From the NCBI RefSeq assembly GCF_028641065.1, contig NC_073383.1, positions 47,492,001 through 47,556,000 of the forward strand: 64,000 nucleotides of DNA, read 5' to 3'. The position numbers and the translations under genes are program-made. Shown one piece after another: positions 1-61,422 of the stretch. Every line of letters starts with the position of its first letter. Within the stretch, counting starts at the first letter, position 1. This DNA comes from Leucoraja erinacea. Its lineage: Eukaryota. Under the pieces are notes generated by a model that searched no databases, was not told the DNA's origin, and worked only from the letters and a program-made list of their open reading frames with translations.

Positions 1-399
1 AACAAACAACTTTTCTTTGAAATTAATTAAATCTCCATTTAAAAAAATGTAAAATTCTGTCATTACAGGATGCAAGCATCCCAATGGAGGTAGGGCAGGA
101 AGATGAAAACTATAATGGATTTAATAGAAAACAGTACTGTGTTCTAAAAGTTTCAACAACTGGTCCAGGAACCCTGAATTTGCAACATTAGACTGTACAT
201 TTTTTAACACTGCACTGATTCCTAAACTTCATTTTTCCAAGCATATTTAACAACAATAATTAACATTTTATCAGCTGGCAGGTACAGACATCAGCAAAGC
301 AAGCTGTGTTTGCAGCTATAGGTTTTATTCAGCAGGAATTTTCAGAAAAATGAGAATGAACAAGCCTCCCAAAACACTACATTCAGTAGCTGTTCATGC

Positions 400-980
400 A
401 GCAGTTGCCTGCATCCCAATTGTATTAACATTGAATTCTCCAGTCCCTGGTATCCTTCCCCACTCCTTTCTGATCTATCAGGTTCTCTCTCACACAGCTT
501 TCTTTCCACTTCACTTTCTCCCGCATCACCCAGTTCCTTTCCCCTACTCCATCTGATGATCACCCATCCCTATTGTCTTACAGGTGCACTATTTCTCCTC
601 CTGTCCCTCCCACAATTATTCTCCTCTACCCACCTTCCCTCCTTCTGGTTCTACATGCCACTCCTCGCACTTCCTTTCTTCTCAGATTCCACCATCTGCA
701 GTCCTTATCACTTCTAGCCTTTGTGACCATCTCCAGCCTCCACTCCTCCACCTGAGTCGCATACCTCCTTACCTGGATCCACCTATCACTTGCCAGCTCT
801 TTCTCCACTCCTTCCCCATATCTCTTTCTATCAGCTATCTCCCCTCTATTCCAGTCTTGAAGAAAGGTTCCGACCCGAAACAATGTCTGTCCATTTCCCC
901 CCACAGATGCTGCCTGCCCTGCTGAATTCCTCCAGCACTTTAGTTTTTGCTCAAGATTTCAGCATCTTGTGTCTCCTGTT
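400..980 (+). mobile_element. Degenerate Penelope-like element 3' end (ORF C-terminus, pyrimidine-rich tract, tail)
   Basis: Peptide SCLHPNCINIEFS resembles the end of Penelope-type ORFs (recalled consensus about LQPxGMNIEFS). It is followed by the tail family seen across the window, with a decayed hammerhead-like core at ~857-885. Confidence 0.6.
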
Positions 981-2107
981 TCTTTTGTTGTCTATGAAAT
1001 GATATTGATAAAGATAGCAACTATGCACAGAACTCCTATTTTAATTGTACAGGAATGCATAAGTCTCAGTCTTTTGCACAGCAAATTAATGTCGAATTGC
1101 AATTGTGCTCTGTTATTGGAGATTAGACCTGGTGCAAGTTCATTGATCATTTCAATGGAGAAGAAATGTTGCAAAGGAAACAGGTAAGATCGAATGGTAA
1201 TTTACACGTTTTTATTTGCATTAGTTTCTTGTGTTTTAAGTATTTCTTAAGGTTTTCAATTTAATAGTACCTTTGTTTTTTAATAGTTCACTCAAATTCA
1301 AGCTGTTTGACAACTGGTTTGGCCTTTGTCTCAAAGCTAGTCAACCAGCAAGAACCCAAGTGTGGGAAGAACAGGTTCAACAGGTGGATACCTGACAAGT
1401 GCAGGCAGTGGGTTGCTTTGTAGACATTTCTGTCTATTGTGTTAGGCTGCAACACCGTTGAATGTGTAACACAGTTAAACCATCCAACAATTCTGGTCTT
1501 CTATATAAAATGATCAGAGCTCAATGGAGTACTAACTTTACTTGCTAAACTATGGTTACTCAACTCAACTATCACTACTTGAGAGGCGTCACCAACCTAA
1601 TGCTTAAGGGGTAATACATTCTCTTTATAAAGAATGATCTGTATTAAAATAGTATTCATGAACTAGCATATAAATATTAACATGTAGCTCGGCAATATAT
1701 ATTCTGCTGTAGTGTACTGGAATAGAATAAGGACCACACTGGATTTTTAGCCTTGTGACATTGAGTGGAATCTAGGTCAGACCTCAGTGATTAAACCCAT
1801 CTAATTGTAGCAACTCTGAACATCCAAACAGAAAGAAACTTGTCTTTGTCTCATCAGTCTCCAGTGGGAATGAGTGAACAATATAACATTGCCATACTTT
1901 TAAGAAAAGCACTTTGGGTAGCCGATGAGATAAAAAAAACACAAAAATAAAATAAACTTCTGAATTTTGAAAGTGCATCCCAATTCCAAGCCTGCCTCTA
2001 TTTTAAACATATTGATGACTCCACTTGGTTTTCCTCTTTCTCTGTTCAACCCGTAAGTAATATAGGCAAATTTGTGAAAACAGTTCCTTGGTTTCCATCC
2101 CACTCAT

Positions 2108-2799
2108 TCCAGCATCTGCAGTTCCCTCTTAAACACTGTGTATACTCTACTGCGTTATCTCTTCAAGATATGCCCACCTTGAAGAAGTTCTCCTCTTCTC
2201 TCCGGAGACAGTTTCACAACCTCCTCTCTAACTGTCCCCCATCTGTGATCCCTCCTGCCCTCCAACTGTACGCTGTCTCCTCCCATCCCCCAGCCTTCTG
2301 GCTACTCCTCCTTTTCCCTTTCTTGTCCCCACCCACCCCCGCCCCCGATCAGTCTGAAGAAGGGTTTCGGCCCGAAACGTTGCCTATTTCCTTCGCTCCA
2401 TAGATGCTGCTGCACCCGCTGAGTTTCTCCAGCTTTTTTGTGTAACCTTCGATTCTCCAGCATCTGCAGTTCCCTCTTAAACACTGTGTATACTCTACTG
2501 CGTTATCTCTTCAAGATATGCCCACCTTGAAGAAGTTCTCCTCTTCTCTCCGGAGACAGTTTCACAACCTCCTCTCTAACTGTCCCCCATCTGTGATCCC
2601 TCCTGCCCTCCAACTGTACGCTCTCCTCCCATCCCCCAGCCTTCTGGCTACTCCTCCTTTTCCCTTTCTTGTCCCCCCCCACCCCCCCCCCGCCCCCGAT
2701 CAGTCTGAAGAAGGGTTTCGGCCCGAAACGTTGCCTATTTCCTTCGCTCCATAGATGCTGCTGCACCCGCTGAGTTTCTCCAGCTTTTTTGTGTAACCT
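2108..2799 (+). repeat. Tandem dimer (~348-351 bp unit) of a non-autonomous Penelope-derived element, each unit with a hammerhead-like core
   Basis: agcatctgcagttccctcttaaacac starts at 2111 and 2459. ctgaagaagggtttcggcccgaaacgtt starts at 2354 and 2705. The two units are nearly identical. Confidence 0.85.
2354..2381 (+). ncRNA. Putative minimal type-I hammerhead ribozyme core (further copies at 2705, 3923, 15506, 34720, 38356; decayed at ~857 and 54384)
   Basis: CUGANGA box, stem II (GGG...CCC), GAAA, short palindromic stem III (AACGTT/ACGT) and an NUH site (GUU or GUC). Minimal hammerheads are known in Penelope-like elements. Stem I pairing is weak by eye. Confidence 0.6.
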
Positions 2800-3921
2800 C
2801 CTTGCAAACATATCCTGACACACATTTCTGAATACAAACATTGCACCACAATGTGCATGTGAATGCAGGCAGCATTTTATTTTAAACTAGCAAACATTGT
2901 TTTCAAGCCAGACAACTGTTTGTGATTTCTACCCACTAAAAATAGAGTCTTATTGGAAGCAAATGTTTGTGGAATGCAATCATACAGTGGCTTACTTCTA
3001 ATTCACATCGACGACAAAGGGGAAAAGGAGATAGTGATCAGCAGAGAGAAGGAACTAGATAGAGGAAATTAAGGTAAGGAGACGGCTGTTTTAAAACAGA
3101 TTTCAGAGTTTAATAAAAACAAGCAAAATGAAAGAAGTTTGATGGTTTAAAAAAAAGCTGACAATCACAGTTATGACACTACTGAAACAAAAGAAAAGCA
3201 AATGCAATAAATAAACACAAAATTGATCAGTCCAAGAATGAGAGCAGAAATCTATCATGCTGAACAAGCTAAAATGCTCACATTCCCACATTACACTTCG
3301 CTTGAGTGAAATGAAGCTTAAATACCAGCTAATCTTGAAAATAAAATGCACCCCTTTTTTGCCATTAACAACTTTTGACATTTAAAATGCTTTATCAAGC
3401 TAATACAAATATGATTTAGAAAATACTTTTTTGAGAACTCTGATTCGGTGAATCACTCCGAAGCAAAAATCCCAAACTATATTCAGCTGGCATGATGTGA
3501 AATTGATATACAAGTACAGGTATTTAAATATTAGGAATAACTAAAATGGAAATAAACTATATATTTTATAAAAACTAACTATAAAATAACACCAATCTTT
3601 ATTTCTATCCTCACTTCCTAATCACATTAAATATTTTATAAATAATAACTTGAATTTGACCCCTGTTTAATCCTAAATATTTTCCCTTCAAATGCTTCCT
3701 CCTTCCTGGGGAAATGTCAATTTTGGAAGCAGCAACATTTTTGAAATAAACTACTTTTCCATCATTAAAAACATCTAAAAGATTGGAATTACAGCAACTG
3801 ATTTAGTAACAATGACAAAGTCAACCAGCATGGGTCCTTACAATTGTACATTGCTCACAGAGAATGGGTGCAAAGTGATAGAACGAGGCCAACATATAGA
3901 CAGGACAACACATATTTTGTG

Positions 3922-4014
3922 TCTGAAGAAAGGTTTCGATCCGAAACGTTGCCTATTTCCTTCGCTCCTTAGATGCTGCCTCACCCGCTGAGTTTCTCCA
4001 GCATTTTTGTCTAC
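3922..4014 (+). mobile_element. 93-bp Penelope-tail mini-element with a 13-bp TSD
   Basis: Flanked by cacatattttgtg at 3909-3921 and 4015-4027. Begins 1 nt before the CTGAAGA core. Confidence 0.8.
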
Positions 4015-4035
4015 CACATATTTTGTGCCCAATAT

Positions 4036-7000
4036 TCAAGAGAGTTTATTGTCATATGTCCCAGATAGGACAATGACATTCTTGCTTTGCTTCAGCACAA
4101 CATAATATAGTAGGCATGAATACAGAACAGATCAGTGTGTCCATATACCATTATATAAATATATATATACACATGAATAAATAAAACAGATTAAGTGCAA
4201 ATAAACAGATAATGGACTATTAATGTTCAGAGTTTTGTTTCAGTTGAGTTGAATAGCCTGATGGCTGTGGGGAAGAGCTATTCCTGACCCTGGACGTTGC
4301 AGTCCTCAAGCTCATGTACCTTCTACCTGAAGGTAACAGGGAGACGAGTGTGTGGCCAGGGTGGTATGGGTCCTTGATGATGCTGCCAGCCTTTTTGAGG
4401 CAGCGACTGTGATAGATCCCCTTGATGGTAGAGAGGTCAGAGCCGATGATGGACTGGGCAGTGTTTACTACTTTTTGTAGTCTTTTCCGCTCCTGGGCGC
4501 TCAAGTTGCCGAACCAAGCCACGATGCAACTGGTCAGCATGCTCTCTATGTGCACCTGTAGAAGTTAGAGAGAGTCCTCCTAGACCCTAGACATACCGAC
4601 TCTCCGTAATCGTCTCAGGAAGTAGAGGCGCTGATGTGCTTTCATTATAATTGCATCAGTGTTTTCGGACCAGGAGAGATCTTCAGAAATATGCACGCCC
4701 AGGAATTAGAAGCTCTTGACCCTCTCCACCATCGACCCGTTGATATAAACGGGACTGTGGGTCCCCATCCTACCCCTTCCAAAGTCCACAATCAGTTCCT
4801 TGGTTTTGCTGGTGTTGAGGGCCAGGTTATTGTGCTGGCACCATTTGGTCGATCGGTCGGTCGATCTATCTTCTATCCTCCGACTCATCCCCATCACTGA
4901 TACGTCCCACAACAGTGGTGTTGTCAGCGAACTTGATGATGAAGTTCGCACTATGACCGGCTACGTAGTCATGAGTATAGAGTACAGCAGGGGGCTGAGC
5001 ACGCAGTCTTGAGGTGCTCCCGTGCTGATTGTTATCGAGGCTGACACATTTCCACCAATACGAACAGTCTGTGGTCTGTGAATGAGAAAGTCGAGGATCC
5101 AATTGCAGAGGGATGCACAGAAACCCAGATCTGAGAGATAGGTAACCAGCTTGGAGAGGATGATTGTATTAAATGCCAAGCTTTATTCAATGAATAACAG
5201 CCTGACATATGAGTTTTTGTTATACAAGTGGTCCAGAGCGGAGCGGAGAGCCAACGAGATCGCATTCACCGTTGATCTGTTCTGGCGGTAAGTGAACTGC
5301 AGTGGGTCCAGGTTTTTGTCGAGGTAGGAGTTGATTTGCGCCATGATCAACCTCTCAAAGCACATCATCATCACCGACGTTAGTGCCACTGGTCGATAGT
5401 CGTTGAGGCACGTCACCTTGTTCTTCTTGGGCACCGGTATAATTGATGCCCTTTTAAAGCAGGTGGGAACCTCAGACCTCAGAAGTGAGAGGTTGAAAAT
5501 GTCCGTAAAAACTCCAGCCAGTTGGTCCGCACAGGTTTTTAGAACACGACCGGGTATACCATCAGGTCCAGGCGCTTTTCGTGGGTTCACCCCTCTGAAG
5601 GATTTTTTGACGTCGGCCTCTGTGACTGAGACTGAAATACCATCAGAGCGAATGAGGGCTCGGGAAGGCACATCAATAGGGAAGGCACCCTATCAAACCG
5701 TGCGTAAAACGCATTGAGCTCGTCAGGGAGTGATGTTTCGCCGACATTCGAGCTGCCTCCTGATTTTGCCTTATAGGAAATGATTGCATTCAGGCCCCGC
5801 CACAGCTGCCGAACATCTGTCTCATCATCCAGATTGGAGCAGAAGTCCCTTTTGGCCTTTTTGATGGCCTTACCGAGGTCGTATCTGGACTTCTTGTAGA
5901 CCACTATATCATCAGACATGAATGCCCGGTGTCTGGTCTTCAGAAGAGTGCGGATCTCAGAGTTAATCCAAGGCTTCTGATTGGGAAACACTCGGATGGT
6001 TTTTGTAGGGATGCAGTCCTCCACACATATCTTTATGAAGTCTGTAACGACTGTGGCATATTCGTTCAGGTCCGTTGCCGAGTCCCTGAAAATTGCCCAG
6101 TCTACAGACTCCAAACAGTCCTGCAGTTGTTCCTCTGCACCCCCCTCGACCAGCTCTTTACAGTCCTCACTCACCTCTGGGGGTGTGCTCTTCAATTGCT
6201 GCCTGTAGGCAGGAAGCAGCAGCACCGCTGTATGGTCGGATTTACCGAAGTGAGGGCGAGGGATAGAGCGATAGGCATCCTTGATGGTGGTGTAGCAGTG
6301 GTCGAGGGTGTTTGATCCTATGGTGCAGCAGGAGACATGTTGGTGGAAGTTAGGGAGCGATTTCTTGAGGTTTGCTTTATTGAAGTCCCCGGCTATGATG
6401 GTAAATGCCTCGGGGTGTTTATTGACCACGGCGTGCAGCTCCTCCAGTGCCAGGCGGACATCTGCCTGGGGTGGGATGTAGACCGCAGTCAGGATTATGG
6501 AGGTGAATTCCCTTGGAAGGTAGAAGAGGCAGCACTTCACCGCCAGATGTTCGAGGTGTGGAGAGCAGGAGTTGGACAGGACTGCCACATCTGAGCACCA
6601 CGCAGAGTTGACCATGAGGCAGACGCCCCCTCCTCTCCCTTTCCCAGATGCCTGTGTACGGTCCATACGGTGGATGGAGAACCCTTCAGGCTAGATCACT
6701 GAGTCTGGGGGGCTGGGGGTGAGCCATGTCTCTGTGAAACAGAACACAGAGCATTCCCTCAGCTCCCTTTGATAAAGCAGCCATGCCCTTAAGTCCTCCA
6801 CTTTATTTTCTAGTGACTGTACGTTGGCCAGCAGGATAGTAGGGAGAGGGGGCCGAAGTCCCCTCCGCTTCAGTCTGACCTGGAGCCCTGCCCGACGGCC
6901 ACGTTTCCTTACTGCATGGAGCCCTCCTCGCTCTTTACAGGTACAGTACTTACGGGTCTCCGCGAGGTCGGGGAATCCCGAGATCGCGAATTCCCATACA

Positions 7001-7335
7001 GTCGGCACCTCCAGCTCCGTTGCTGCTGGGGGATCCTGCCCGACGGCTTCAATTCCGGACTCCCTGAAGGCCTCCCGGATGTTTGCAGGTAAGGTTCTTG
7101 CTGTGCCTGCGCTCCTCTGCGAGGTTGGGGAATCCCCTCTGACCGGGGATTTCCTTACCGGCGCTAACATCGGGAGTTCTCACTAGCGCTAATGCATTTA
7201 AATGCATTAGCAGCTCGCTACTTACGGCGTTGATTCTAGTGGATTTCCTGATGCAGGTGAATTCATAAATGCTGCATCTTACTGTTTATCTTTGTGCTGT
7301 TCGCAAATTGTCCCCGCAGGTATGCGCCATCTTAT
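4036..7335 (-). mobile_element. Near full-length Rex1/Babar-type LINE (APE endonuclease plus RT), disrupted by stops and frameshifts
   Basis: ORF pieces 6691-7170 (ILLANVQSLENK, CFTETWL), 5587-6666 (VYIPP, AGDFN, SDH), 5183-5671 (KAPGPDG, DYRPVAL), 4961-5179 ([10 protein letters not shown]), KFADNTT, and C-terminus 4220-4555. 3' tail gacaataaactctcttga; 5' aagatggcg motif at 7325-7333. Confidence 0.9.
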
Positions 7336-8559: not shown

Positions 8560-8680
8560 CTAGTAGCTTCTTACTGTCTAGCTTCTGTCTGTTCAATGGA
8601 TTAGTGCCATACAATAATGCGTGCTGCTCCGAATGAACAGTTTGCAGTTCCTCCAACGATGCTTTTCTTCCTCTGATGCA
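8560..8680 (-). CDS. HDAC4: HDAC4 exon (121 nt, phase 0-1): [40 protein letters not shown](G)
   Basis: Not in the ORF track; translated manually. Continues the previous exon in frame and matches HDAC4 [41 protein letters not shown]. Acceptor tttctgcag| and donor |gtaatg. Confidence 0.96.
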
Positions 8681-15417: not shown

Positions 15418-15599
15418 GCTGTCTCCTCCCACCCTCCTATCCGCCCGCCCTCGGGCTCCTCCTCCTCCCCTTTTCTTTCCTTCTTCCCCCCCACCCCCCA
15501 TCAGTCTGAAGAAGGGTTTCGGCCCGAAACGTTGCCTATTTCCTTCGCTCCATAGATGCTGCTGCACCCGCTGAGTTTCTCCAGCAATTTTGTGTACCT
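15418..15599 (+). mobile_element. Penelope-tail element with an intact hammerhead-like core at 15506-15533
   Basis: Same tail as 2108-2799. Possible TSD tgtctttgt on both sides. Confidence 0.75.
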
Positions 15600-20135: not shown

Positions 20136-21198
20136 TAAACCAAACCCTTGATCCTGTCCAGTCAGCCTTTTTTCAAAATTTAGCAACTCAAAATAGGGGT
20201 GCGTCTTCGACGCAGGTGTGTCTCCATTGCCAGGAAATATGGTACTTTCATCTACCATGCATATATTTTTTTAAAGTAATTAAACATAATAATCTGCAAC
20301 AACACTTCCAGCTTTTTTTGTATATTTGCATAATTTTTCACTGGTCTCTTCCCTCTTATAGGAACATTGCTTCCAATGTCCTCTATCCCTTATTTGAAAT
20401 AGAAAAAACACAAGATATAGATGCGACTGCTCTGCCATTCAATCAAATCATGGCTGATTTTTGTTTTTCCTTAATAACCATAATCTATCAATCACTGTCT
20501 TGATTTACTCAGCAACTGACCCTCATGGAGAATTCCAGACACCCTAACCTCTGGGCAAAGAAATGTCTTCTTATCTGCATCCTGAGTGGCTGACCTCTTA
20601 TTCTGACAGTGCAACTCCAGGCTTAGACACACCACCAAGCAAAACATCAACTCCATACACTTGTAAAGGTTTAGGAACTTTCTATGTTTCATAGATAACT
20701 TCCCATTTTTCTAACTTCAGAGAGCATAATCCAAGTCTCCTCCATTTACAAAATGAAACAAGAAAAAAATAAAGTTATGAGAATATCGTTCCTTAACTAT
20801 CGAGCCCGTTTCATTTTGTTTTGCATGATGAATTGTAAAAGCACTGCTGCAGACTGGAGCGTTTAGATTGCCTGTAATACATCCAAATCCATGAAGCCAG
20901 GACTATGTTCAAATGATTTATATCAAGTTCTCACATCAGATTTAATGACCATCATTTGTTATGCTAATAAATTAACACAGGTACTGTCTGTGCAGATTTC
21001 AAATGGCTTTAACACAATTCAGAGGTAACTTGATCAGAGTAAATTAGTAATTTAAGATTTAAATTCTGCTCATGAAGCTACTCAAGTTTGTATTTCAATT
21101 TTGCAAAAGACTATTCTAAACCATTCAACAGTGGCGGCAACAGTTTGTTTTACATTTAGACTTGAATCAAGAAGCTCTTGACTGTGTTTGGAAATTAC

Positions 21199-21332
21199 CT
21201 CACATTTGCTGCGTAGGCCTGTCTCTTGCAGTCGAGACCAGATACTCTGGATTCTCCCAGCATGTTCAGGGTGGCTATTTGTATTGCCACAAGTGCAATG
21301 GTGCTTCAACATCAGAGTATCATAAACAAGAC
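21199..21332 (-). CDS. HDAC4: HDAC4 exon at the start of the deacetylase domain (134 nt, phase 1-0): [45 protein letters not shown]
   Basis: Class IIa structural zinc ligands C-x-C...H and the HPEHAGRI motif. Acceptor tgatag| and donor |gtaatt. Confidence 0.97.
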
Positions 21333-21807
21333 CTATCAGAGGAATGAAAAAAAAGGTCAATAAATAATTCACCATAAATACATTAAAAAAAGTGAAACAT
21401 ACAAAAAAAAGAACACTTCATTGGAATTGATAACTATAACAAGCATTAAACATTTGTTTACTCAAGAATCTGATTTGTTGCCTTTTGATTGTCAACCTAT
21501 TGCACCGTAATTCTTTAAAAAAAAAATCATTGTTATTAATTAAGGAAAAATTAGCCTAACAGAATAGCAATGAGAACAAGGAAGCCAATTTTACTCACAT
21601 ACCAGTGGACAATTTAGAGTTCTCATTATGAGGATGGGCTTTTTCTGCAGCAATCAGTATCGGGACACTTGTTCCAATACGAGTAAACATATCAAAACAT
21701 GAGAAGACCATTCAAGTCACTCCACCATTAACAACATCTGATTGTAACCATATTTCTCCAATCTCGTCTTGGCATACGTATTTAATTTTTCGACAAATAT
21801 TCATCGT

Positions 21808-23003: not shown

Positions 23004-24329
23004 TCAAGTTAAAGTAATCCTCAAATTAAGCAGAAAGTTTACTTTATTTACTCAGTTTTATTTTTGATTACTCCCCGGGGTGAGCCACATCTTTTTCTGA
23101 TCACAGCAGTATTTTCACCAGTCCCAGTGAGCTTTAAATGACATATAGCTTTTTTTCTATCATTGAGAAGGGGCAGGAGGATTACAGGAGACCTCGTATC
23201 ACATTTTGATTAACAACTTATTTAAAGAATAAACAAATGAGTGGTTTGATATATTTACTCAGACACATTTACAGTAGAATTAAACTGCCTGGTCAGTTTC
23301 TCCAAAAGAAATCAATGCACACAATCCTTATGCTAAATTTTTCTTGTGAATTAATCTTTGTGTAAATATTAATACTTATTTTAATACTTTCAATTGCAGT
23401 GGGAGTTAGAGGTGTACTGTAAATGTTCAAATCTAAATACCCATTTCAAGCATTTCATTAATTTAAAACCTCGGTTAACAGCAGTTACTGCACCTAAATT
23501 TAAAACAACTAATTTCACAATGAACAATATATGTAATGCCATATAGCTAAGCTTACTTGGGTTACTTGTACTAAAAAGGAACTGCAGATGCTCGTTTTAC
23601 CAAAGAGACACAAAATGCTGGAGTAACTCAGCAGGTCAGGCTGCATTTTTGGACATAAAGGATAGGTGACGTTTTGGGTCAGGACCCTTCAGATCTTCTT
23701 GGTTTACATGGCTTGGTTACCCATTCAAACCTATAACTTTGGAGGTTGACAAACCACTAATCTGAGCTTTATTTTGTTGGGAGGGGATATGGAATTTAAC
23801 TGTACATAACTTCCTTCCTACTGGTTAAAGCTTTCTGCATTTCCGCTTGCCATTTCATCCACTGACTTTTAAGATGGAGAGACGAGTGACCTGTACAAGA
23901 ACAGAAGTAGAAAACACCAGCCTTCCGTTTTGTGACATCTGGATACAATTAATTGACAAAATGGTACATAATTGATCCTGAGAATGAAATTTTGACCAAA
24001 TATAATAATGTTACTTAAGCCAGGCAATATTATGATGAAAATAACTGCCAGGACTGACGCACTAAGAGAAAAATAGTATCAATGCCCATCGATGACATGT
24101 TCATGTCAGCAAAAAATTAAATGAACGATTACCAGTTGTACTTGTAAAATAGTAACAGCATATTGTGTTGTGGTGTCATTTGTTATTGACACAGCAATGT
24201 AATTAAATGATTTATTTCCCGATAAGTTCTAATGCTTTGGAGAGAAATTAAAAGAAAAATAAATAAAGTGTCTACAGATATGAAAATGCAGGAACTTGCT
24301 CCACAACTTGTTATTGAGTAATACAAAGA

Positions 24330-26280
24330 AAGGGCCAACATATCCCAAATTAGTATTTCAAACATACTAAATCTTACAGAAGAATTTGGTTCCTTTTCAG
24401 GATATGGAATAAACTGGAACAAAAGTGAAATTATGTCAATAAAACCTCAAGATTCGACACACCTTCTAAAATTTCCTTTTAGAATTGCTACAGAAAAATG
24501 TAAATATCTTGGAGTTTACGTAATTAGAAAATATCCTTCTTTATTTCAAGCAAATTTTCCACCATTAATTACCAAACTAAATGCCCTTATTCAATTTTGG
24601 AAAACGCTTCCGATCTTCCTCATAGGTAGAATAAATGCCATAAAGATGATCTTCCTTCCACAAATCCTGTACCTATTTCAATCAATACCGATTTATCTCC
24701 CTAAAAATGTTTTTTTTAAACTCGATTCTGTGATCACAAACTTTATTTGGGATTGCAAAACTCACAGAATCCATAAACGACATTTATGTAAACCCAAAGA
24801 AATTGGCAACTGGCTCTCTCTAATTTTTTTTACTATTACTGGGCAACGAATATTAAAAATATAATCTATTGGATGGACGACACATGCCAACAGGTAAACT
24901 GGCTAATAATGGAGAGAGAAGATTGTTTTCCTTTTAATATAGGCGCGATTCTTCTCTCTCCAGTAAATAGGAAAAAATCAGCATATGAGAAAAATACGAT
25001 AATCCATAGCACCTTACAAATCTTGAAACAAGTGGTCAACCCTTAAATTGAGAAATGTATCTCTTCTCTTACCAATCACCAACAATCCCTCATTTAAGCC
25101 GTCTACTTTAGACAAGGCGTTTATACAATGGGAAAGCTTAGGAATTAAAAAGCTGGGAGACCTTTATGAGATGGGGACTCTCCTCTCATTTCAAGAATTA
25201 CAGTCGAAATATCATCTGAAAGGTAACCAATACTTTAGATGTTTTCAAATACGAGACTATCTGAAACAACATACCCAAGACTGTCAATATATGGTTCCAG
25301 ACATAGACGAATGCATGAATAGAAAGTCGGATTCAAATAAGTTAATACCGTACCTTTACAATGCCCTTTTAAATAGACAAACCCCATCGTCGGAAATAAT
25401 TAGGCGAGCTTAGGAAGATGAACTGGGCCTAACAATTTTAAAAGATAGTTGGGAGGAAAGCCTTCTATATATACACAACTGTTCTCTTAATGTTAGGCAC
25501 TCACTAATACAATTTAAAATACTGCATAGACTTTATTATTCAAAGTCTAAACTGAATAAGATCTTCCCAAATGTCTCCCCTATTTGTGATAAATGTCTCC
25601 TTCAGGAAGCAACCATAACCCACTCTTTTGCCTCCTGTATAAAGTTACACAATTTCTGGAGGGGAATATTTGAAATTTTTCCTAAAATACTTAAAATAAA
25701 ATTGGACCCCGACACAGAATTGATCACACTAGGTACATCAGAAGCCTTTTCTGTGCTAACATTATTTCAAAGACGTTTCCTTAACTGTGGCCTGATAACG
25801 GCGAAAAAACGAATACTTAAATTTTGGAAACACACATCAGTCCCTACTATGAAGATGTGGATTACAAACATGTCCGAGACACTACATTTGGAAAATATTA
25901 GGCTTGTCTTGGCAGAAAAACCAGATCAATTTTTTAAGACATGGACACCCTTCACCGAATTCTTACAAGGATAATATGGCGCAACACAAATTTAGATTTA
26001 TATCCGATTCTGGGTTGGGTGAGGAGGGTGGAGGGGGGGGGACGAGGGGCAGGTTTATCTCCACTTTCTTTTTTCCTCTTATATCTTTATTCACTTTTTG
26101 GCCACACTACTTTGACAGTCTAGGGATCTTTTCTATGTACTTTATCGAGCTATCTTTTCACTTCTCACTTTTCCCCTCTCTTGTTCTTTCTCTCTTCTTT
26201 TCTCTAATTTTCAAGTTAAAAGGTTAAAATTGAAGCTGTACAATAATTGTATAATTTTAGATGCCAAATAATAATGAAAA
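24330..26280 (+). mobile_element. L1/Tx1-type LINE ORF2 3' half (5'-truncated, decayed)
   Basis: KYLGV...LIGRINAIKMIFLPQILYLFQSIP, C-terminal CDKC...HSFASC knuckle, then a G-run and T-rich 3' UTR. Confidence 0.85.
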
Positions 26281-26595: not shown

Positions 26596-28379
26596 CAGTG
26601 CCCCCCATAATGTATGGGACAAAGACCCATCATTTATTTATTTGCCTCTGTACTCCACCATTTGAGATTTGTAATTAAAAAAAAATCACATGTGGTTAAA
26701 GTGCACATTGCCAGATTTTTAATAAAGGATATTTTTATACATTTTGGCTTCATCATGTAGAAATTACAGCAGTGTTTATACATAGTCCCCCCATTTCAGG
26801 GCACCATAATGTTTGGGACACAGCAATGTCATGTAAATGAAAGTAGTTATGTTTAGTTATGCAAGGATATTGTTGCATATCTTTTGCATGCAATGACGGC
26901 TTGAAGTCTGTGATTCATGGACAACACTAGTTGCTGGGTGTCTTCTCTGGTGATGCTTTGCCAGGCCAGTATTGCAGCTACCTTTAACTTATGCTTGGTT
27001 TGGGGGCTAGTCCCCTTCAGTTTTCTGCTCAGCATATAAAAGGCATGCGCAATTAAGTTCAGATCAGGTGATTGATTTCACCACTCAATAGAATAGTTTC
27101 TTTATTGTCATTGTAACATGAGCCATGTACAACGAAATTTAAAAATGTCAGCCAGTCAGTGCACCATTCAAACATTTCTAAAAGCTAACGATACATACCA
27201 GGTAAAATATTAAATGATAAACAACTAAATAAATATCACGAAAATAGCACACATAAACACCCAGCCCTCCATCCTTCTGTCGATTTCACAGTGTACCACA
27301 GTCCCTTAGTTTGTCTCGCCCCTAAAAATAATTTACTATTTTTTAGCTTTAAAAACTCCTTTGTTGCTTTAGCAGTATGTTTGGGATCATTGTCTAGCTG
27401 CAGAATGAACTGCCAGCCAATGAGTTTTGAGGCATTTGTTTGAGCCAGGACCTTCAGCAGCCATACATGCCCAGGCCATAACACCTCCACCACCGTGTTT
27501 CACAGATGAGGTGGTATGCCTTGGATCTTGGGCAGTTCTTTCTCTCCTCCATACTTTGCTCTTGCCATCACTCTGATATAAGTTAATCTTCGTCTCATCC
27601 GTCCATGTCCTTTTTTCCAGAACATTCTTTAAGTACTTCTTGGCAAACTGTAACCCGGCCATCCTATTTTTGTGGCTAACCAGGGGTTTGCATCTTGCAG
27701 TGTAGCCTCTGTATTTCTGTTCATGAAGTCTTCTGCGGACAGTAGTCATCGACAAATCCATACCTGACTTCTGAATAGTGTTTCTGATTTGTCGGACAGG
27801 TATTTGAGGATTTTTCTTTATTATAGAAAGAATTCTCTGTCATCAGCTGTGGTCTTTCTTGGCCTGCCAGTCCCTTTGCGATTAGTAAGCTCACCAGTGC
27901 TCTCTTTCTTCTTAATGATGTTCCAAACAGTTGATTTGGGTAAGCGCAAGGTTTGGCTGGTATCTCTAACAGTTTTATTCTTGTTTCTCATTCATAATGG
28001 CTTCTTTAACTTTCATTGGCACAACTTTGGTCCTCATGTTGATAAATAGCATTAAAATTTTCCAAAGGTGATGGAAAGACTGTAGGAAAGACTAGGTGCT
28101 GTGAGTTCACTTGCACCTGCATTAAGGAGGCATTTAAACTCGCCAGAACAATTAGAAACACCTGTGAAGCCCTGTGTCCCCAACATTATGGTGCCCCTGA
28201 AAGGGGGGACGATGTATACACAGCTGTAATTTCTGCATGGTGAAACCAAAGTGTATAAAAAAACACCCTTTAAAAAAATCTGACATGTGATTTTTTTCTA
28301 TTACAACTCTCATATTGTGGAGTACAGAGGCAAATAAATAAATGATGGGTGTTTGTCCCAAACATTATGGAGGGCACTC
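26596..28379 (-). mobile_element. Tc1-family DNA transposon with long IR/DR-type TIRs and a decayed transposase
   Basis: TA|cagtgccccccataatg...cattatggagggcactc|TA. TIRs of ~230 bp with an inner repeat (cataatgtttgggacac). Peptides VRRRL...ARCKPL, WTDETKIN, SVKHGGGGVMAW, LQLDNDPKHTAK. A LINE-tail insert sits at ~27090-27330. Confidence 0.92.
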
Positions 28380-28544: not shown

Positions 28545-30590
28545 TTTTTTTTTAATTTATTTTTATTTATTAGAAGTAGTATACAAAAATATAAGCAGCG
28601 GCATATGGCATAATACAGTTATTGTACAGCTTCAATTTTAATTTTTAGCTAAAGTTTTTAGAAAAGAAGAGAGAAAAAGCAAGAGAGAGAAAAGGTGGAT
28701 GTGCAAGAATAGAACCCCTAGACTACCAAGTTGGTGTAGCCAAAGAGTGTGTAAGTAAAATAAATAAGAAAGACGTAGAGAAATAAAAAGACAAAAACAG
28801 AAAGAAAAACAAAAGGTGATGATATACATGCCTCGTACCCCTCCCCACCCATCACGTAATTAGATTTAACTCCAAAATTGTGTTGCACCATACTATCCTT
28901 GTAATATATCAATGAATGGTGGCCATGTCTTCGAAAAATGTTCTGGTTTTTCTGCTAAGACAAGTCTATATTTTTAAGATGTAGTGTCTCAGACATGTTT
29001 GTAATCCACATTTTAAGAGCAGGGGCAGATGTATGTTTCCAAAATTTGAGTATTAGTTTTTTCGCCATTATCAGACCATAATTGAGGAAACGTCTTTGAA
29101 ATATTGATAACTCAGAGCAGGCTTCTGACGTTCCTAGAATAATCAGTTCCATGTCGGGGTCCAATTTTGTTTTTAATATTTTTGAGAGAATTTCAAAAAT
29201 TTCTCTCCAAAAGTTATGTAATTTTATGCAAGAGGCGAAGGAATGTGTTATAATTGCTTCTTGAAGGAGACATTTGTCACAAATAGGAGATACATTTGGA
29301 AAGATCTTATTCAGTTTAGACTTTGAATAGTAGAGTCTATGCAGTATTTTTAATTGAATTAACGTATGTCTAACGTTAATCGAACAATTGTGTATATATA
29401 AAAGGTTTTCTTCCCATCTGTCTTTTAGAATTTTTAGGCCTAGTTCCTCTTCCCAGTCTCTTCTAATTACTTCTGACAAAGGGATTTCTATATTTAGAAG
29501 GGTATTATACAAATATAATGTTAAGTTGTTTGACTCTGAATTTTTATTCATACATTTGTCTAGTATATCTGGCAGCAAAGTTTGGTAGTCTTGGGTATAT
29601 GTTTTCTGAAATATCTGAAATATTGATTACCTTTCAGGTGATATTTCGACTATAATTCCTGAAATGAGAGAAGAATTCCCATCTCGTAGAGATCTCCAAG
29701 TTTTTTGATTCCTATCTTTCCCAATATGTAAATGTTTTATCTATAATAGATGGCTTGAACAAAGGGTTAGTGGCTATTGGTGAAAGAAGAGATAAATTTC
29801 TTAGTTTAAAAATTGATTTTACTTGTCTCCAGAGTCGTAGAGTGCTGTGAATAATCGGATTTTTATCATATAGTGTGTTCTTCAAATTTGATGGGGAGAG
29901 AAGAATCGTGCCTATATTAAAAGGCGAGCAATCCTGTCCCTCCATTATTAACCAGTTTACCTGTTGGCATGAGTTGTCCAGCCAGTAAATTACATTTTTA
30001 ATATTCGTTGCCCAGTAATAGTATAAAAAGTTGGGGAGAGCCAATCCGCCTGTTTCTTTGGGTTTACATAGTTTATGAATTCTATGTATTTTATAATCCC
30101 AGATAAAGTTTGTAATCAGAGAATCAAGATTTTTTTAAACATTTTAGGAAGATACATCGGTATTGATTGAAATAAATACAGAATTTGTGGGAGGAAGATC
30201 ATCTTTATAGCATTTATTCTGCCTATTGGAAACAATGGGAGTGTTTTCCAAAATTGAATAAGAGCGTTTAATTTGGTAACTAAAGGCGGGAAGTTTGCAT
30301 TGAATAGAGAGGTATATTTTCTGGTTACCTGAACACCCAGATATTTGAATTTTTCCGTAGCAATTCTGAAAGGGAATTTTAGAAAATGTGTAGACTCTTC
30401 AGGTTTTAATGATATAATTTCACTTTTGTTCCAGTTTATTCTATATCCTGAAAAGAAGCCGAATTCCTCTATAATATTTAATATATTTGGAATACTAACT
30501 TGAGAATTGGTGATATATAATAATACATCATCTGCATATAATGATATTTTGTCATTGGAGTATTTAGAATGATAGCCTTGAATGTTTGGA
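28545..30590 (-). mobile_element. L1/Tx1-type LINE ORF2 3' half, same family as 24330-26280
   Basis: YADD at ~30526-30539 (reverse strand), ORFs 29712-30044 and 28955-29578, A-rich tail at ~28545-28570. Confidence 0.87.
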
Positions 30591-31579
30591 TCTGGATTAA
30601 ACTTTCTTACAGTGAATCACATGGAATAAACTTTGGGATCAATCTACTGACATTAACTGGACAATAATGTCCAGTATTAGCTTGTTGAGGAAAGTGCCAA
30701 GATTTCCATTGCTGATCATTTTCTAGTTAATTTAGTTTAAAAAGGGGTATTTTTGCAAATTGGATGAAAACAGGTTAGATACAGGATCAATCTAATTTTG
30801 TTTCATCTTTGTTATTCACCCCCCTGGTCTTAAACACGGTAAATAATTTGTTAGAATTTGAGTCCACAACCCCCAAGAGAAAAGCCAGAAAAAATGCTGG
30901 TATTGGTGGAATAAAGGCCCACATTCTGTGGGGACTATTGCCAATGCTTGCAATCAGCCATTATAGGATTACCTCCTAAACACAAAGTAGCAGTCAGCTG
31001 TTTTGGTGATGGTGACTGTGCTTCTCATAAGAGATCATTTTGTAAAATGTGGGCAATTACCACTAATATCACTGCACTAGAACTAACCTCTTTATAGGAA
31101 TAGCATCTCTACTTGTTTCAATGGAGGGAAAGGCTCAGAGAGGCTATGTGTAGCCAGCAGTTTTAAAATGATTAATCTACCCTTTTGCCTTAGTTTTTGT
31201 TTTGAAGATATTCTTAATGAAATTCAACATAATGAGCATCTATTAATGTCTCTGTCAGCCAGCTAAGCAGGTTAGAGATTCGTGGCGGAGGTGTGTTTGG
31301 AGGGGGGGAGGGGGAGGGTAGATGAATGGAGAGGATGTAATTTGAACAACTTCTTGATATTTTGTGGACCAGGCTTATATCATCCTATACTTATAAACAC
31401 ACAGGAGTCCATTCAGTGCAGCGCATTAGGTTCATGTAACTCCCATTCGAGGAATTTAATTGGTCCCACTACTCTTCTCCTCATTAACCTGCCACCCTTT
31501 TCCATCGCCAACACTGAAATGACATTACATTGTACAAAGCTCTGTGTACACAGAATTACATTTCCCACACCACTTCCTA

Positions 31580-32190: not shown

Positions 32191-32385
32191 GATAGACACA
32201 AAATGCTGGAGTAACTTAGTGGGTCAGGCAGCATCTCTGGAGAATATGGAAAGGTGACATTTCAGCTCCAAAAACATCACCTATCCATGTTCTCCAGAGA
32301 TGCTGCCTGGTCTGCTGAGTTACTCCAGCATTTTGTGTCCACCTTTGGTATAAATCAGCATCTGCAGTTCTTTTTTATTACTTTA
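32191..32385. mobile_element. Fold-back Penelope-tail insertion with TSD atattagctga
   Basis: gacacaaaatgctggagtaact...ggcagcatctctggagaa and its reverse complement ttctccagagatgctgcc...agttactccagcattttgtgtc. Confidence 0.75.
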
Positions 32386-32869
32386 TATTAGCTGATTTCC
32401 CATTAATTTACTGAATAAAATATTTTTGCGAAATTACACTTTTTTCTGTATTGTGTCAAGATTGTACTGGGTGCTGTTAATATTGCTCCATGTGTGGAAG
32501 AGGGTGAAATACCCCACCAACATTATTCAGTCGTCCTTTAGGGGGCAACATTGAGACAATGCAACTCTAAATTAATTTACCTTCTTAACTATGACAAATA
32601 TAATTGTAGATGCTGGAAAGTGAAAGCAACTCCAAGCAGAAAAGAAAGGTTGAACAGAAAAGATTGAAGAGTAGGTGACACAAATTACCCAAATAAATTT
32701 ATCTGATGCTGTAGGTACAGTATCAGAAAGAGATTATTGGGTCACTGCTGTATGTTGGTTTTATTTAAATACAGCAATTATTATAGAACTTTGGAACAGA
32801 GGGAACCCATTTTTAGTTACTTTGGGAGCTGGTAAATAAGGAAATGTTTGAAAAAAAATGTTAATTTTT

Positions 32870-34650
32870 GAGGAGCATTTCCACAACAACTCTGACCCCA
32901 GGCGCATGTGGCAAGGAATCAAATCCCTTGCCGATTATCAGAAAGTTAACACCCCTCCCCCAGACAACGACACCCTGCCTGATGAGCTAAACCACTTCTA
33001 TGCTCGCTTTGACCGAGACAACAAAACCCCAGCCATTAAAGTTGCTCCACCCCCGAATGAACAACCTCTCAGCCTCTCCACCTCTGCTGTACAAGATGCA
33101 CTGAGCAAGGTGAATGAGCGCAAAGCTGCCGGCCCCGATGGCATCCCTGGCCGGGTGCTTAGGGCATGTGCTGGACAACTATCCCCAGTCCTCGCCGACA
33201 TTTTCAATCTCTCACTGGCCCAGGGTGTTGTCCCCACTTGCCTCAAGACATCAACCATCGTGCCAGTGCCCAAACAGTCAGCTACAGGGAGTCTCAACGA
33301 TTTCCGCCCAGTGGCACTCACCCCTGTCATTGCAAAGTGCTTTGAGCGGCTGATCTTGGCTCACCTCAAAGCCAGCCTCCCCCCACACTGGACCCCCATC
33401 AGTTTGCCTACCGGACCAACAGGTCTACAGAGGACGCCATATCGGCGGCCCTACACTCTGCCCTGACCCACCTGGACTACAACAACTCCTACATCAGGCT
33501 GCTGTTCATTGATTTCAGCTCTGCCTTTAACACCGTCATCCCAGCCAGCTTGATCACCAAACTCAGTGGACTTGGCATCTCCACCTCCCTCTGCAACTGG
33601 ACATTGGACTTCCTCACTAACAGACCACAGTCTGTTAGGGCCAATAATCTCACCTCCTCCACTATAACACTGAACACCGGAGTGCCACAGGGCTGTGTGC
33701 TCAGCCCTCTCCTCTACTCCCTCTTCACCCACGACTGCATCCCAAAGTACGGATCCAACGCCATTATTAAGTTTGCTGACGATACCACGGTAGTAGGACT
33801 GATCAGCGACAACGATGAGTCAGCCTACAGGGATGAGATCCAGCACCTGACGTGCCCGACAATAACCTCATCCTCAACTCCAAAAAGACGAAGGAGATTA
33901 TTGTCGACTTCAGGCAGACCAGAGGAGGCAGTCATACCGCCATCCATATCAACGGGACTGAGGTGGAGCGCGTCTCCAGCTATAAATTCCTCGGAGTACA
34001 TATCTCGGAGGACTTGTCCTGGTCCCTCAACACCTCCAAGCTGATCAAAAAGGCACAGCAGCGCCTTTACTTCCTTAGGAGGCTCAAGAAAGCCCACCTG
34101 TCCCCCCAGATCCTGACCAACTTTTACCGCTGTACCATAGAGAGTATCCTGACCACCTGCTTCACGGTATGGTACAGCAGCTGCACTGCTGCGGACAGGA
34201 AAGCACTACAACGGGTGGTGAAAACCGCGCAGCACATCATCGGTGCCCCGCTCCCTGCCATGGATGCCCTCCACCGAAAACGGTGTCTGAGACGGGCTGG
34301 GAAGATCATCAAAGACCCCTCACACCCCAACCATGGACTGTTTGCCCTCCTCCCATCAGGGAGGCGGTACAGGAGCCTCAGGTCACGTACCAGCAGGATG
34401 AGGAAAAGCTTCTATAACAACACAATCACACTGCTGAACTCGGAGTCCCGACGATAGATTTCTCTGGTCCCTCCGTCCCCCTTTGTTTAATCATTCTGTA
34501 TTTCCTGATTATTCTGTATCTTCTCTCTTTCCATTTTTTTTTTGTTTTTTTTTTCTCTTTATGTACAACTACTACGGACTGACGCAAAACTGCATTTCGT
34601 TGTACTGATACTTGTATTTGTGCGATGACATTAAAGTTGAATTGAATTAA
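32870..34650 (+). mobile_element. Rex1/Babar-type LINE, 5'-truncated RT region with frameshifts
   Basis: ORFs 32858-33466, 33550-34044 ([17 protein letters not shown]) and 33852-34457; (ttgaa)n tail. Confidence 0.9.
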
Positions 34651-34710: not shown

Positions 34711-34814
34711 TCCATCTGTCTGAAGAAGGGTCTCGACCCGAAACGTCACCCATTATTTCGCTCCATAGATGCTGCCTCACCCGCTGAGTTTCTCCATCAA
34801 TTTTGTCTACCTTT
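34711..34814 (+). mobile_element. Penelope-tail mini-element with an intact hammerhead-like core (34720-34747, GUC site)
   Basis: ctgaagaagggtctcgacccgaaacgtcaccc; tcattacag on both flanks (possible TSD). Confidence 0.75.
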
Positions 34815-44856: not shown

Positions 44857-47125
44857 TTATATTTTACAAGTTATTCCCATTTTTAACTTAACATTTAAAC
44901 AGCGCCCTCACCACTTGCCCCGCCCCCACTTGCCCCATTTACTTGACTGGTATCAAAAAGGACACCCCACGGGTCCTCAGCGTTGCCTTTGCACAATTTC
45001 AGACCACCATCTTTTTTTCCTCGCCTCATGGACACAACGGCTCCATGGGTAAGTTTCCTTTAATTTTACTGCTGCTCCAGGCTCGCAGGGATCCAGGGCC
45101 TTGGCGCTTAGGCTGGGGCTGGGTCTGCGGCGCTGCTGCTGCTCCAGGTCTGGGGGCGTGGAGAGGCCGTGTTGAGGATCCGGGACTCGGGCGCTGAGGC
45201 TGGCTCTGGCGGTTGGCGGCGCTGCTGCTCCGGGCCCACAAGGAGGGAGAGGAGCCGGACCTTCGTGATCCTGAGGAGGTGAGGAGGGAGAGTGGGGCGA
45301 TTGGGGAAGAGGAGGGCAGTGGGCGAGGTGAGGAGGGAGGTGGGGGATAGAGGGATAGGAGGGGGGTAGGGAGGGGGAGAGGGGTTATGGAGGGAGGGAG
45401 GGAGGGAGGGAGGGAGTGACTGAGGATAGGGGAAAGGAGAGGCTGGGAGAGGTGAGGGAGGAGTGGTGGAGCTGAAGGATAGAGGGAGAGGAGGGGGGGT
45501 AGGGAGGGGAACGTGAGGGAGGTGTTGAGGGAGCGTGGGGGTAGGAGGGGGGGGGATAGAGGGAGAGAGGACGGGGGAGTGGGAGAAGTAGGGAGTGGGG
45601 GATAGAGGGAGAGGAGGGCAGTGGGGGAGGTGAGGAGGGAGAGTGGGATGAGGGAGATGAGGAGTGGGGGAGCAGGGAGATAGAGGGAGAGGAGATGGGT
45701 AGGGAGGGAAGGGCGGGGAGAGCTGCGCCTGGAATCCGGGGCCTGGGCGCTGATGCTGGGTCTGGGGGCGGCGGCGTTGTTGTTGCCCCGAGCTCGGGCT
45801 GCGATGAGAGACCCGCGCGGGGGATCCGGGGCCTGGACACTGACCCTGGGGCTAGGGGCGGCGGCGCTGCTGCTCCCGGGCCCGCGTGGAAGGATAAGAG
45901 CGGGACCCATGAGATCCTGGGGAGGTGAGGAGGAAGAGTGGGGGGAATGAGTGAGAGAAGGGGGTAGGGAGGGAGAGGGAGGGAAAAGTGATGGAGGTGT
46001 GAAGGGAGTGTGGGGGAGGCGGGGGGGGGATAGGGGGAGAGCAGGGGGAGGTAGGTAGTGGGGGATAGAGAAGGGCAGTGGGGGAGGCGAGGAGGGAGAG
46101 TGGGTGGGTGGGATGGGGGAGGTGAGGAGTGGGGGAGGTGGGGGATAGAGGGATAGGAGGGGGGAAGAGAGGGCAGTGGGGTAATGGAGGGTGGGATGGA
46201 GTGACTGACGGTAGGGGATGGGAGGGAGGGATAGGTGAGGGAGGGAGTGGGGAGGGGTGGAGGAGAGGGGAAAGAAGAGGGAAGGTGAAGAGGAGGGAGA
46301 GGGAGTGGTGGAATGGAGGAGGATAAAGGTAGGAAGAGGGATGGCGAGGCGCAGTTGGAGGAGGGTTGCCGTGACTCATGTCACAATGGGGATCGCTAGC
46401 GGGAACACGTCAGCCGTGCTTACGCAGTTGGGGCTATGGGTGAGTGGTGGAATATTGAGTTGGGCGACTGCGCCCAACGGGTCCGCACCTGGTCCAGTAC
46501 ATATATATTACTGAAAGATTTTGCATTTTAACAGATGAAGACTGCAAGATGTGACGCTTAGTCACTACATTTGCCAGAAAATTTAATATTTATCCACTTA
46601 CGTCACTGAATTTTTGGGCGTTAACTCTTTGGGATAAATATTCGGTCTAGATGCTATAAGGACTTTCTCAAATTTCTCAGGAGGTCCCTGTGTCTACCTC
46701 TGACATGTGCTTAAGCCCACAGCCATTGATTCTACCTTGTCATCTACCTACTGTCTGCATGGTGTGCTGATAGTTTCCTCTAAATAAAACCATCTGGACA
46801 GCTGCTGCAGACTTCCCATATTGTGAGCCTACACCAAGTTATATCCTGCGCAGGTACACAAATAATTGCGAGATATTAGTTACCAAGAGAACGTGCGGCC
46901 CTTTTCACTTTTGTTAAATAGTGTTTGATTTATTTGCTTAAATAAAAGTTAAAAACCTTTTACATTTATTTCCACTTTTAGAAAAAACGCCTGATTTTGA
47001 CTGTTTGAAAGGCATTTGATAATGGTGACATCTCTGACACTAAGTGAGCCTGGGAACATAGCAGGCCGCCAAGGCCACCTTTAGTGCAGCAGGCAGTTTC
47101 GACAAAGCCCCTAAACACTATATTG

Positions 47126-48443
47126 CCTGACGATGCCACAGTTGTGAGACGAATTACAGATGGTGATGAGTCAGAGTATAGAAGTGAGATCGACCGACTG
47201 ACCATATGGTGCCAGCACAACAACCTGGCTCTCAATATCAGCAAAAGGGGAAGGTTGAGGACCCACAATCCTGTTTACATCAATGGGACAATGGTGGAGA
47301 GACTCAAACATTTCAAATTTCTGGGCGTGCATATTTCCGACGATCTTTCCTGGACCAGCTCACTGATGCAATCATAAAGAAAGCACATCAGCGCCACTAC
47401 TTCCTGAGAAGATCACGGAGATTCGGTATGTCAAAGAGGATTCTCTTGAACTTCTACAGGTGCACAGCAGAGAGCATATTGACTGGACCTGAACGTCCAG
47501 GAGCCGAAAGGACTGCAAAAAGTTGTAAGCACTGTCCAGGCCATCACCGGCTCTGACCTCCCCACCATCGAAGGGATCTATCGTGGTCGCTGCCTCAAAA
47601 ATGCAGCCAACATCATTAAAGACCCACACCATCCTGGCCACACACTCATCTCACCACTGCCATCGAGAAGAAGATACAGGAGCTTGAGAACTGTAATGTC
47701 CAGGTTCAGGAACAGCTTCTTCTTTGTATTAAACACTACAACCACCGGATCACTTACAAAATCCTGATCCTCACCTACAAAGCCCTCCACCATCTGGCCC
47801 CCCCCATATCTCACTGACCTCCTCTCCCCCTACCAACCCTCACGGTCCCTCAGATCCACATCAGCCGGTCTCCTCTCCATCCACAAATCCAACCTCCAAA
47901 GTTTTGGGGACAGAGCCTTCTCCAGGGCAGCTCCCAGGCTCTGGAACTCCTTCCTCCAACTGATCCGCAATTCCATGTCCCTCACCATCTTCCAGTCCCG
48001 CCTCAAGACCCATCTCTTCACCTCTGTCTATCCTTAGCCCCACGTCCCCCTCCCTTTTCATCTGTGCATTAATTCCCTCGTATTGTGTTTTGAATTGAAT
48101 TCTGTCTTTACTTTGTGTACTAGTCATGTCTCTACTATTTATTTCAATCCCCTTACGTGTTTTTCCTCTACTTGCTAAATTTTTGTAAGGTGTCCTTGAG
48201 ACTCTTGAAAGGCACCCATAAATAAAATGTATTATTATTATTATTACAACCTCATAAGCTATGAACTACAATAGGCTATTATTATTATTATTATTATTAT
48301 TATTGCACTGTTATTGTTTGGGGGGTTTTTCTGAGTTTTTGTTATATTTTTTATTATGATTACATATTCTGTTGTGCTGCAGCAGGTAAGGATTTCATTG
48401 TTCTATCTGGGACATATGACAATAAAACAATACACTGGTCTTG
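47126..48443 (+). mobile_element. Rex1/Babar 3' fragment split by an L2 insertion
   Basis: DDATVV...WCQHNNLALN...[14 protein letters not shown]. The sequence resumes after 48246 and ends in ctatctgggacatatgacaataaa, the same tail as the 4036-7335 element. Confidence 0.8.
47737..48246 (+). mobile_element. L2 LINE 3' end
   Basis: RITYKILILTYKALHHLAP...RSLRS...RAFSRAAPRLWNS; 3' stem-loop aaggtgtccttgagactcttgaaaggcacc and a (tta)n tail. Confidence 0.85.
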
Positions 48444-48444
48444 A

Positions 48445-54202: not shown

Positions 54203-54479
54203 GACATAAAATGCTGGGGTGACTCAGCGTGACAGGCAGCATCTCTGGAAAGAAGGAATGGGCAACGTTCCCCAGAGATGCTGCCTTTCCTGCTGAGTTA
54301 CTCCAGCATTTTGTGTCTACCTTTAATTTAAACTAGCATCTGCAGTAGTTTCCTACACAAGTATAACAGGCAAGTATTTCCACCTGAAAAAGGGTTTTGA
54401 CCCGAAACGTCACCCATTCTTTCTCTCCAGAGATGCTGCCTGTCCTGCTGAGTTACTCCAGCTTTTTGTGTCTATCTCC
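54203..54479. mobile_element. Two adjacent Penelope-tail insertions: a fold-back copy (54203-54359, TSD agtataacaggca) and a direct copy with a mutated core (54384-54479)
   Basis: TSD at 54190-54202 and 54360-54372. Core ctgaaaaagggttttgacccgaaacgtcaccc. Confidence 0.75.
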
Positions 54480-59462: not shown

Positions 59463-59479
59463 ACACTCCACTGGTAACT

Positions 59480-61405: not shown

Positions 61406-61422
61406 AAAGACCACTTCTGGAC

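Follow-up and report, generated by a model that had tools for sequence, protein, structure and literature searches.

A probable Penelope-derived tandem of two minimal hammerhead units in the genome of Leucoraja erinacea

The tandem insert and its host gene

The stretch analysed here, hereafter the window, comprises 64,000 nucleotides of the Leucoraja erinacea genome (assembly GCF_028641065.1, contig NC_073383.1, positions 47,492,001 to 47,556,000 of the forward strand). At 2108-2799 it contains two head-to-tail units of about 350 bp, each with a hammerhead core. A preliminary description of this DNA had reported two near-identical tandem units with cores 351 bp apart and a short ATG-initiated stretch in each; both observations were reproduced, the units being 97.7% identical with a period of 351, and the ATG-initiated stretches starting at 2170 and 2518 with the translation given there. 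The features of the locus are as follows.

2108-2455, plus strand: unit 1, starting 7 nt into the tail extension of the family
2456-2799, plus strand: unit 2, its 3' end falling where sister copies end
2108-2135, plus strand: tail extension (30-40 nt in the family), at the 5' end of the insert, with a step in depth at about 2135
2170-2271, repeated at 2518-2619, plus strand: head, ATG-initiated, 34 codons, likely the start of the parent element's ORF
2272-2448, repeated at 2620-2799, plus strand: 3' tail, pseudo-LTR-like, with polypyrimidine tract, hammerhead and conserved hairpin region; a solo copy begins at the same motif
2354-2381, plus strand: minimal hammerhead core 1, predicted cut after 2381 (GUU)
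2449-2455, plus strand: 7-nt family linker from tail to head, present once in the insert and at neither flank
2705-2732, plus strand: minimal hammerhead core 2, predicted cut after 2732 (GUU)
about 8560-8680, minus strand: HDAC4-like exon recognised by short motifs, the closest exon found 5' of the dimer along the gene

The insert (692 bp) amounts to 1.99 units, and the unit is 53% GC and 69% pyrimidine. Compared with unit 1, unit 2 lacks 2 nt at the head/tail junction (2274-2275), has a poly-C tract longer by five C and shows one A/C change, with 0 substitutions outside that tract. The indels of unit 2 (-2, +5) cancel in frame, for which the chance is one in three, leaving a frame of 77-78 codons in both units (2170-2403 and 2518-2754), and both frames stop at the same point past the hammerhead. 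The dimer is confirmed as real in sequence. A DNA contig of organism B spans the left junction from 1750 to 2135 with 0 differences; no contig of the runs spans the whole tandem, and the dimer is absent among the 38 rows that TRF returned at the settings of this analysis.

On the minus strand, an HDAC4-like exon within 21082-21417 matched HDAC4 chains at E 7e-24. A Pfam search of 148 minus-strand frames recovered no deacetylase exon, and short motifs found one. Motifs of the later part of the HDAC4 catalytic domain were not found in the 64-kb window, which would place the dimer in the intron that follows the exon at 8560-8680; the dimer is thus likely to have been inserted antisense in an HDAC4 intron.

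The tail family, the head and their junction

The hammerhead tail had 19 matches in the 64-kb window, representing 18 insertions when the dimer is counted once, and the core is intact in five of these 18. One solo copy, at 15418-15599, shares 97.9% identity and begins at the motif found at 2272. Target duplications were present in three of four sister copies scanned, namely 13 bp at copy 3921, 9 bp at 15418 and 9 bp at 34712, and the scan found none at copy 38349. The 3' end of the dimer, 2799, lies within a few bases of the ends of copies 3921, 15500, 34714 and 54384, and copies 38349, 852, 23608, 41231 and 32272 carry an extension of 30-40 nt beyond that point, so that the family has two end types, one 67 nt past the hammerhead cut site and the other 30-40 nt further. 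Of the copying by a Penelope reverse transcriptase (RT) that had been proposed for this DNA, the part supported is that the ends were made by an RT. An optional tail at either end of insertions has been described for Penelope-like elements (PLEs) (Craig et al. 2021, PMC8557442), and in an anole PLE a two-ended pattern has been ascribed to a pair of internal sites at which the RT starts (Frangieh et al. 2024, PMC11167929).

Several minor observations were made on this family. The tail extension can pair with the sequence just past the hammerhead (2401-2466) in a hairpin that encloses the family end point and recalls the stem-loop where the anole RT starts; this hairpin recurs in five of six single folds, with compensatory change in 0 of 15 pairs among six copies. 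Tail copies stand in adjacent inverted arrangement at 32196-32338 and 54208-54471, as described for PLE insertions. Among the tail copies of 852-54471, all five insertions with intact cores are on the plus strand, antisense to HDAC4, and those with broken or truncated cores are divided between plus (6) and minus (7); age, and whether all of the window is intronic, are confounders of this skew (Fisher one-sided p = 0.054), which would fit selection against sense, cleavable copies.

The depths of organism B contigs were 35 for the flank, summing to about 3e7 for the tail and 3e4-1e5 for the ATG stretch; these sums, which are not copy numbers, indicate a head that is itself multicopy but much rarer than the tail. 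In two contigs the match to the head stops at 2269-2270 and 43-49 unlike letters follow, and the solo tail copy starts at the 2272 motif, which together indicate a unit in which head and tail meet at about 2271/2272. The fusion of an ORF start to a tail, as previously suggested, therefore stands as far as the joining of a multicopy head to the family tail is concerned. The ATG lies 137 nt past the predicted hammerhead cut site, and the peptide of the ATG stretch may be the start of a Penelope ORF. Of the five variants listed within the ATG frame, four are synonymous third-position changes (chance about 0.045), which would modestly support derivation of the frame from a coding parent. The earlier assignment to a Penelope ORF start has indirect support only, and protein searches returned no relative of the ATG stretch. 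DNA pattern searches of viral and metagenome contigs gave 0 matches, and no autonomous partner (RT plus GIY-YIG) was found. Judging by the type of hammerhead, the pattern of ends and known features of these elements, the dimer is likely a shortened PLE.

The hammerhead and its predicted activity

A loose core pattern had seven matches in the 64-kb window, compared with a mean of 1.0 and a largest value of 4 in 100 shuffles, and six of the seven belong to the hammerhead-tail family. Numbered by hand, the core comprises C3-A9, an extra A after A9, a 4-bp helix II with G10.1-C11.1, G12-A14 and the GUU triplet, and a palindromic ACGU at 15.2-16.2 in both units allows a dimeric helix III by ACGU/ACGU pairing. 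The extra base, the G10.1-C11.1 pair and the palindrome agree with the minimal hammerhead of Penelope type originally recognised at this locus, and stem I, which had looked weak by eye, is indeed interrupted, helix I consisting of 2 bp beside the core, a 2x2 internal loop and 3 bp. Over 10 copies in the window, 85% of the three-helix cells are paired (slid controls, 2.5-43%), with covariation not above shuffles (113-415/500). A covariance-model search, which the preliminary description had proposed as a check, did not recover the motif: the Rfam scan of 1-6000 gave no hammerhead match at E<=10, and none of its eight matches at E 1.7-9.9 was a ribozyme.

The minimal hammerheads of PLEs described by Cervera & De la Pena (2014, PMC4209133) share with the dimer the core, the extra base after A9, the G10.1-C11.1 pair and the palindromic helix III, and they occur mostly as solo copies from truncated elements, as does the tail of this family. 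They differ in that their helix I is described as having 4-5 bp, whereas that of the dimer is interrupted; in that helix II of the dimer is short (4 bp, compared with 7-8 in Schistosoma); and in the spacing of cores, which is about 3 kb in PLE pseudo-LTRs and 351 bp in the dimer (PMC4209133).

Since the solo copy at 15500 is 97.9% identical, GUU appears to be a trait of the subfamily rather than decay at the dimer, and most of the depth of the sequencing runs at 2381 likewise reads U. A GUU triplet is cut more slowly than GUC.

The preliminary description went on to suggest that a plus-strand transcript of this locus could cleave itself twice and release a 351-nt circular RNA. No positive evidence of either event was obtained: host transcription is antisense, the predicted circle is weakly paired, and RNA ends do not pile up. 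The RNA runs X23 and X21 showed no place with many molecule ends, despite 6588 and 7381 reads over 2381; these are poly(A)/oligo-dT and single-cell libraries, of which 5% and 1% were used, and because circles are poorly sampled in such libraries the result is a weak test for them. Most reads over the hammerhead tail come from other copies. Head coverage in X23 was 14-17 reads at 2225-2274, many head reads differing from the dimer sequence, and neither run had reads at 1975-2099. The family reads of the single-cell run X21 were strand-biased about 3.5- to 19-fold at 2250-2424, which oligo-dT priming on antisense A-runs could cause, and the bias was given no weight.

In folding predictions, the circle is 40% paired (z -1.6), and five of 100 shuffles fold as well. 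In co-folding of the dimer, another check proposed at the outset, the double-hammerhead fold lay 20-25 kcal/mol above the minimum, since the cores are near-palindromic and the one anneals to the other; however, GUC-type copies are similarly disfavoured (13-20 kcal/mol), so the penalty is generic and does not single out the dimer. Published minimal hammerheads cut weakly as dimers (PMC4209133), the hammerhead of the anole PLE cuts only with protein (PMC11167929), and one of nine Xenopus retrozyme dimers was cleaved (Li, Clavereau & Pollet 2026, bioRxiv 10.64898/2026.07.22.740005).

Origin of the dimer and its relation to known elements

The linker at 2449-2455 occurs once, between the units and at neither flank, so that one inserted unit could not have supplied it and the template was likely already tandem or circular; letters similar to it come after the tail in copy 38349 and in the loose ends of each of the four runs. 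In addition, the insert has the layout of non-autonomous PLE copies, with one end at the RT start point, the optional 30-40-nt tail at one end and units head to tail. With moderate confidence, we therefore read the dimer as a young non-autonomous PLE insertion, likely copied by RT from an uncut RNA that was already tandem. The age rests on organism A, one contig of which matches the left flank up to 2108 (five substitutions and three gaps in 319 nt) and continues for 1171 letters at single-copy depth, a length close to the 1121 nt that separate 2800 from the next repeat. The length of this run-on, rather than its letters, suggests an empty site in organism A, a relative diverged by about 1.6%, and hence a likely young insertion. 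The dimer lacks a target duplication, the best word in common being 6 nt long and 17 nt from the end, and no source array was seen.

The path to such an insertion may have been as follows. A shortened unit would have formed earlier, when the tail extension, the 5'UTR and the first 34 codons became fused to the element's final ~180 bp, and a source array elsewhere would have given rise to a multimeric transcript of it. An RT supplied by an autonomous partner would then have primed at the usual start point of the family, 67 nt past the hammerhead site, and run through both uncut hammerheads, ending 7 nt before two units were complete. The hammerheads would have come with the pseudo-LTR and, unless protein assists them, are predicted to cut slowly or not at all; the dimer is probably a passive copy. 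An uncut multimeric transcript is favoured over a circle as template because the units differ by indels and because, in the anole PLE, the RT copies mainly uncut RNA and mutation of the hammerhead does not abolish insertion (PMC11167929), although a circle explains the sequence nearly as well.

A circular template is central to the view that the locus is an active retrozyme, in which the plus-strand double hammerhead would free a 351-nt monomer that circularises, the dimer being its rolling-circle RT copy. Both cores are intact and able to pair through ACGU/ACGU, GUU is listed among the cleavable triplets in the literature, an insert of 1.99 units crosses both cut sites as would be expected from copying a circle for more than one unit (model in PMC4209133), and, as in tandem PLEs, a promoter could be provided by the unit lying upstream. 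Nevertheless, we regard this view as unlikely in light of the lack of RNA ends piling up in X23 and X21 (a weak test for circles) and the low head coverage there, the circle's low pairing, matched by five of 100 shuffles, the unfavourable active fold (with the similar GUC-type copies), the indels between units, and the poor cutting of published minimal hammerheads as dimers, including eight of nine uncut Xenopus dimers. A related proposal, which we hold to be decidedly unlikely, is that a currently mobile mini-Penelope family, reduced to what mobilisation requires, namely pseudo-LTR, tail and an ORF start serving as RT-binding signal, spreads through a 351-nt circle produced by protein-assisted self-cleavage, the dimer again being a rolling-circle copy.

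Other explanations would do away with a family of such units or with the insertion of a tandem. Head and tail may have met only once, through template jumping of the RT as this copy inserted or at a single source locus; contig joints in both organisms show other head-to-tail fusions at many different points (2133-2137 to 2347-2363, and 2202 to 2348), which rest on sides of 18-29 letters and were flagged as weak, and none of the contigs listed bridges 2271/2272, these being 16 of about 170,000 and too small a sample for absence. The same 2271/2272 junction, however, is present twice in the dimer, and a fused template must have existed before copying ended, which makes a single joining quite unlikely. 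Tandem duplication in place of one inserted unit, by slippage or unequal exchange, would account for the near identity of the units, and satellite-type expansion of PLE ends has been proposed (bioRxiv 10.64898/2026.07.22.740005), but the linker at neither end of the insert would then require a later precise loss, and organism A appears to be without even a monomer; such duplication is very improbable. Least credible is an error of assembly, whether a false duplication or the collapse of a longer array: no contig spans the tandem, and the units differ in low-complexity tracts where long reads err, yet the left junction was confirmed in organism B DNA and the family linker would not arise by false duplication. 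A possible collapsed longer array would leave the reading of the dimer unchanged.

Among known elements, the dimer, read as a PLE copy made from tandem RNA, resembles the non-autonomous Chlamys elements such as MRC1, which occur in multicopy head-to-tail insertions (PMC8557442), and the anole Poseidon element PAc, in which two RT start points likewise bound a tail of 30-40 nt downstream of the hammerhead (PMC11167929). In PAc, however, hammerhead and start codon overlap and the RT begins 111-118 nt inside the ORF, whereas the end points of the present family precede the ATG (PMC11167929). The dimer may accordingly be compared to a non-autonomous PLE, and would work like one whose autonomous partner is unseen.

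As to retrozymes, tandems with two complete type I motifs are counted as such in a recent preprint, which derives them from PLE pseudo-LTRs and reports retrozyme-type repeats with a mean of 363 bp in the one chondrichthyan sampled (bioRxiv 10.64898/2026.07.22.740005). Vertebrate non-LTR retrozymes as described there share with the dimer the two-unit tandem, a type I hammerhead, canonical or minimal, and homology to PLE ends; the dimer unit is close to the chondrichthyan mean in length, but seems to keep a start-of-ORF stretch besides the pLTR. By this computational definition of 2026 the dimer counts as a retrozyme, having two consecutive complete motifs with MFE of -6.0 to -10.6 kcal/mol (threshold < -5), values that do not belong to the hammerhead fold and motifs that were found by a loose pattern rather than the rnabob model of the preprint. 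The non-LTR retrozymes of coral and axolotl also carry a type I hammerhead in head-to-tail units, which measure 150-450 bp, but their hammerheads are canonical, with loop 1-loop 2 contacts and fast cleavage, whereas that of the dimer is minimal, and they have GC < 50% and highly paired, abundant circles, compared with 53% GC and 40% pairing in the dimer unit (Cervera & De la Pena 2020, PMC7229834). The dimer thus departs from the functional description of 2020 in three features, the canonical hammerhead, GC < 50% and the highly paired circle.

Of the earlier suggestion that this would be a chondrichthyan retrozyme-like family, the PLE-type dimer stands, and the novelty is weakened by the repeats reported in one chondrichthyan in the 2026 preprint, whose chondrichthyan families may already list that of the dimer. 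PLE-derived hammerhead dimers are already known, chondrichthyan ones included, and the dimer is one more. Our literature search found no paper on hammerhead ribozymes of Penelope in cartilaginous fish; the whale shark genome paper counts Penelope among its elements, and PMC6765202, PMC3138052 and PMC8455134 were also drawn on. The dimer illustrates neatly, in what is likely a young insertion, the step that has been proposed to lead from PLE to retrozyme, and its once-only linker indicates that the tandem predates insertion. If cleavage and the circle were shown, it would provide a natural 350-nt unit for testing the copying of PLE tandems from circular RNA, and a route to the in vivo role of the minimal hammerhead.

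A bacterial promoter scan was set aside, the host being a vertebrate. Elsewhere in the window, frames for an endonuclease or a reverse transcriptase mark decayed elements of LINE type at 4220-7180, 32850-34460 and 47050-50990, and L1/Tx1-like remnants were recognised by eye at 24320-26000 and 28950-30620. DIRS-like remains at 57900-63200, also identified by eye, include RT, RNase H/methyltransferase-like and recombinase-like frames, a region in which Pfam gave a weak PCIF1_WW match only. A fragment of a Tc1-like transposase was likewise seen by eye on the minus strand at 27387-27839.
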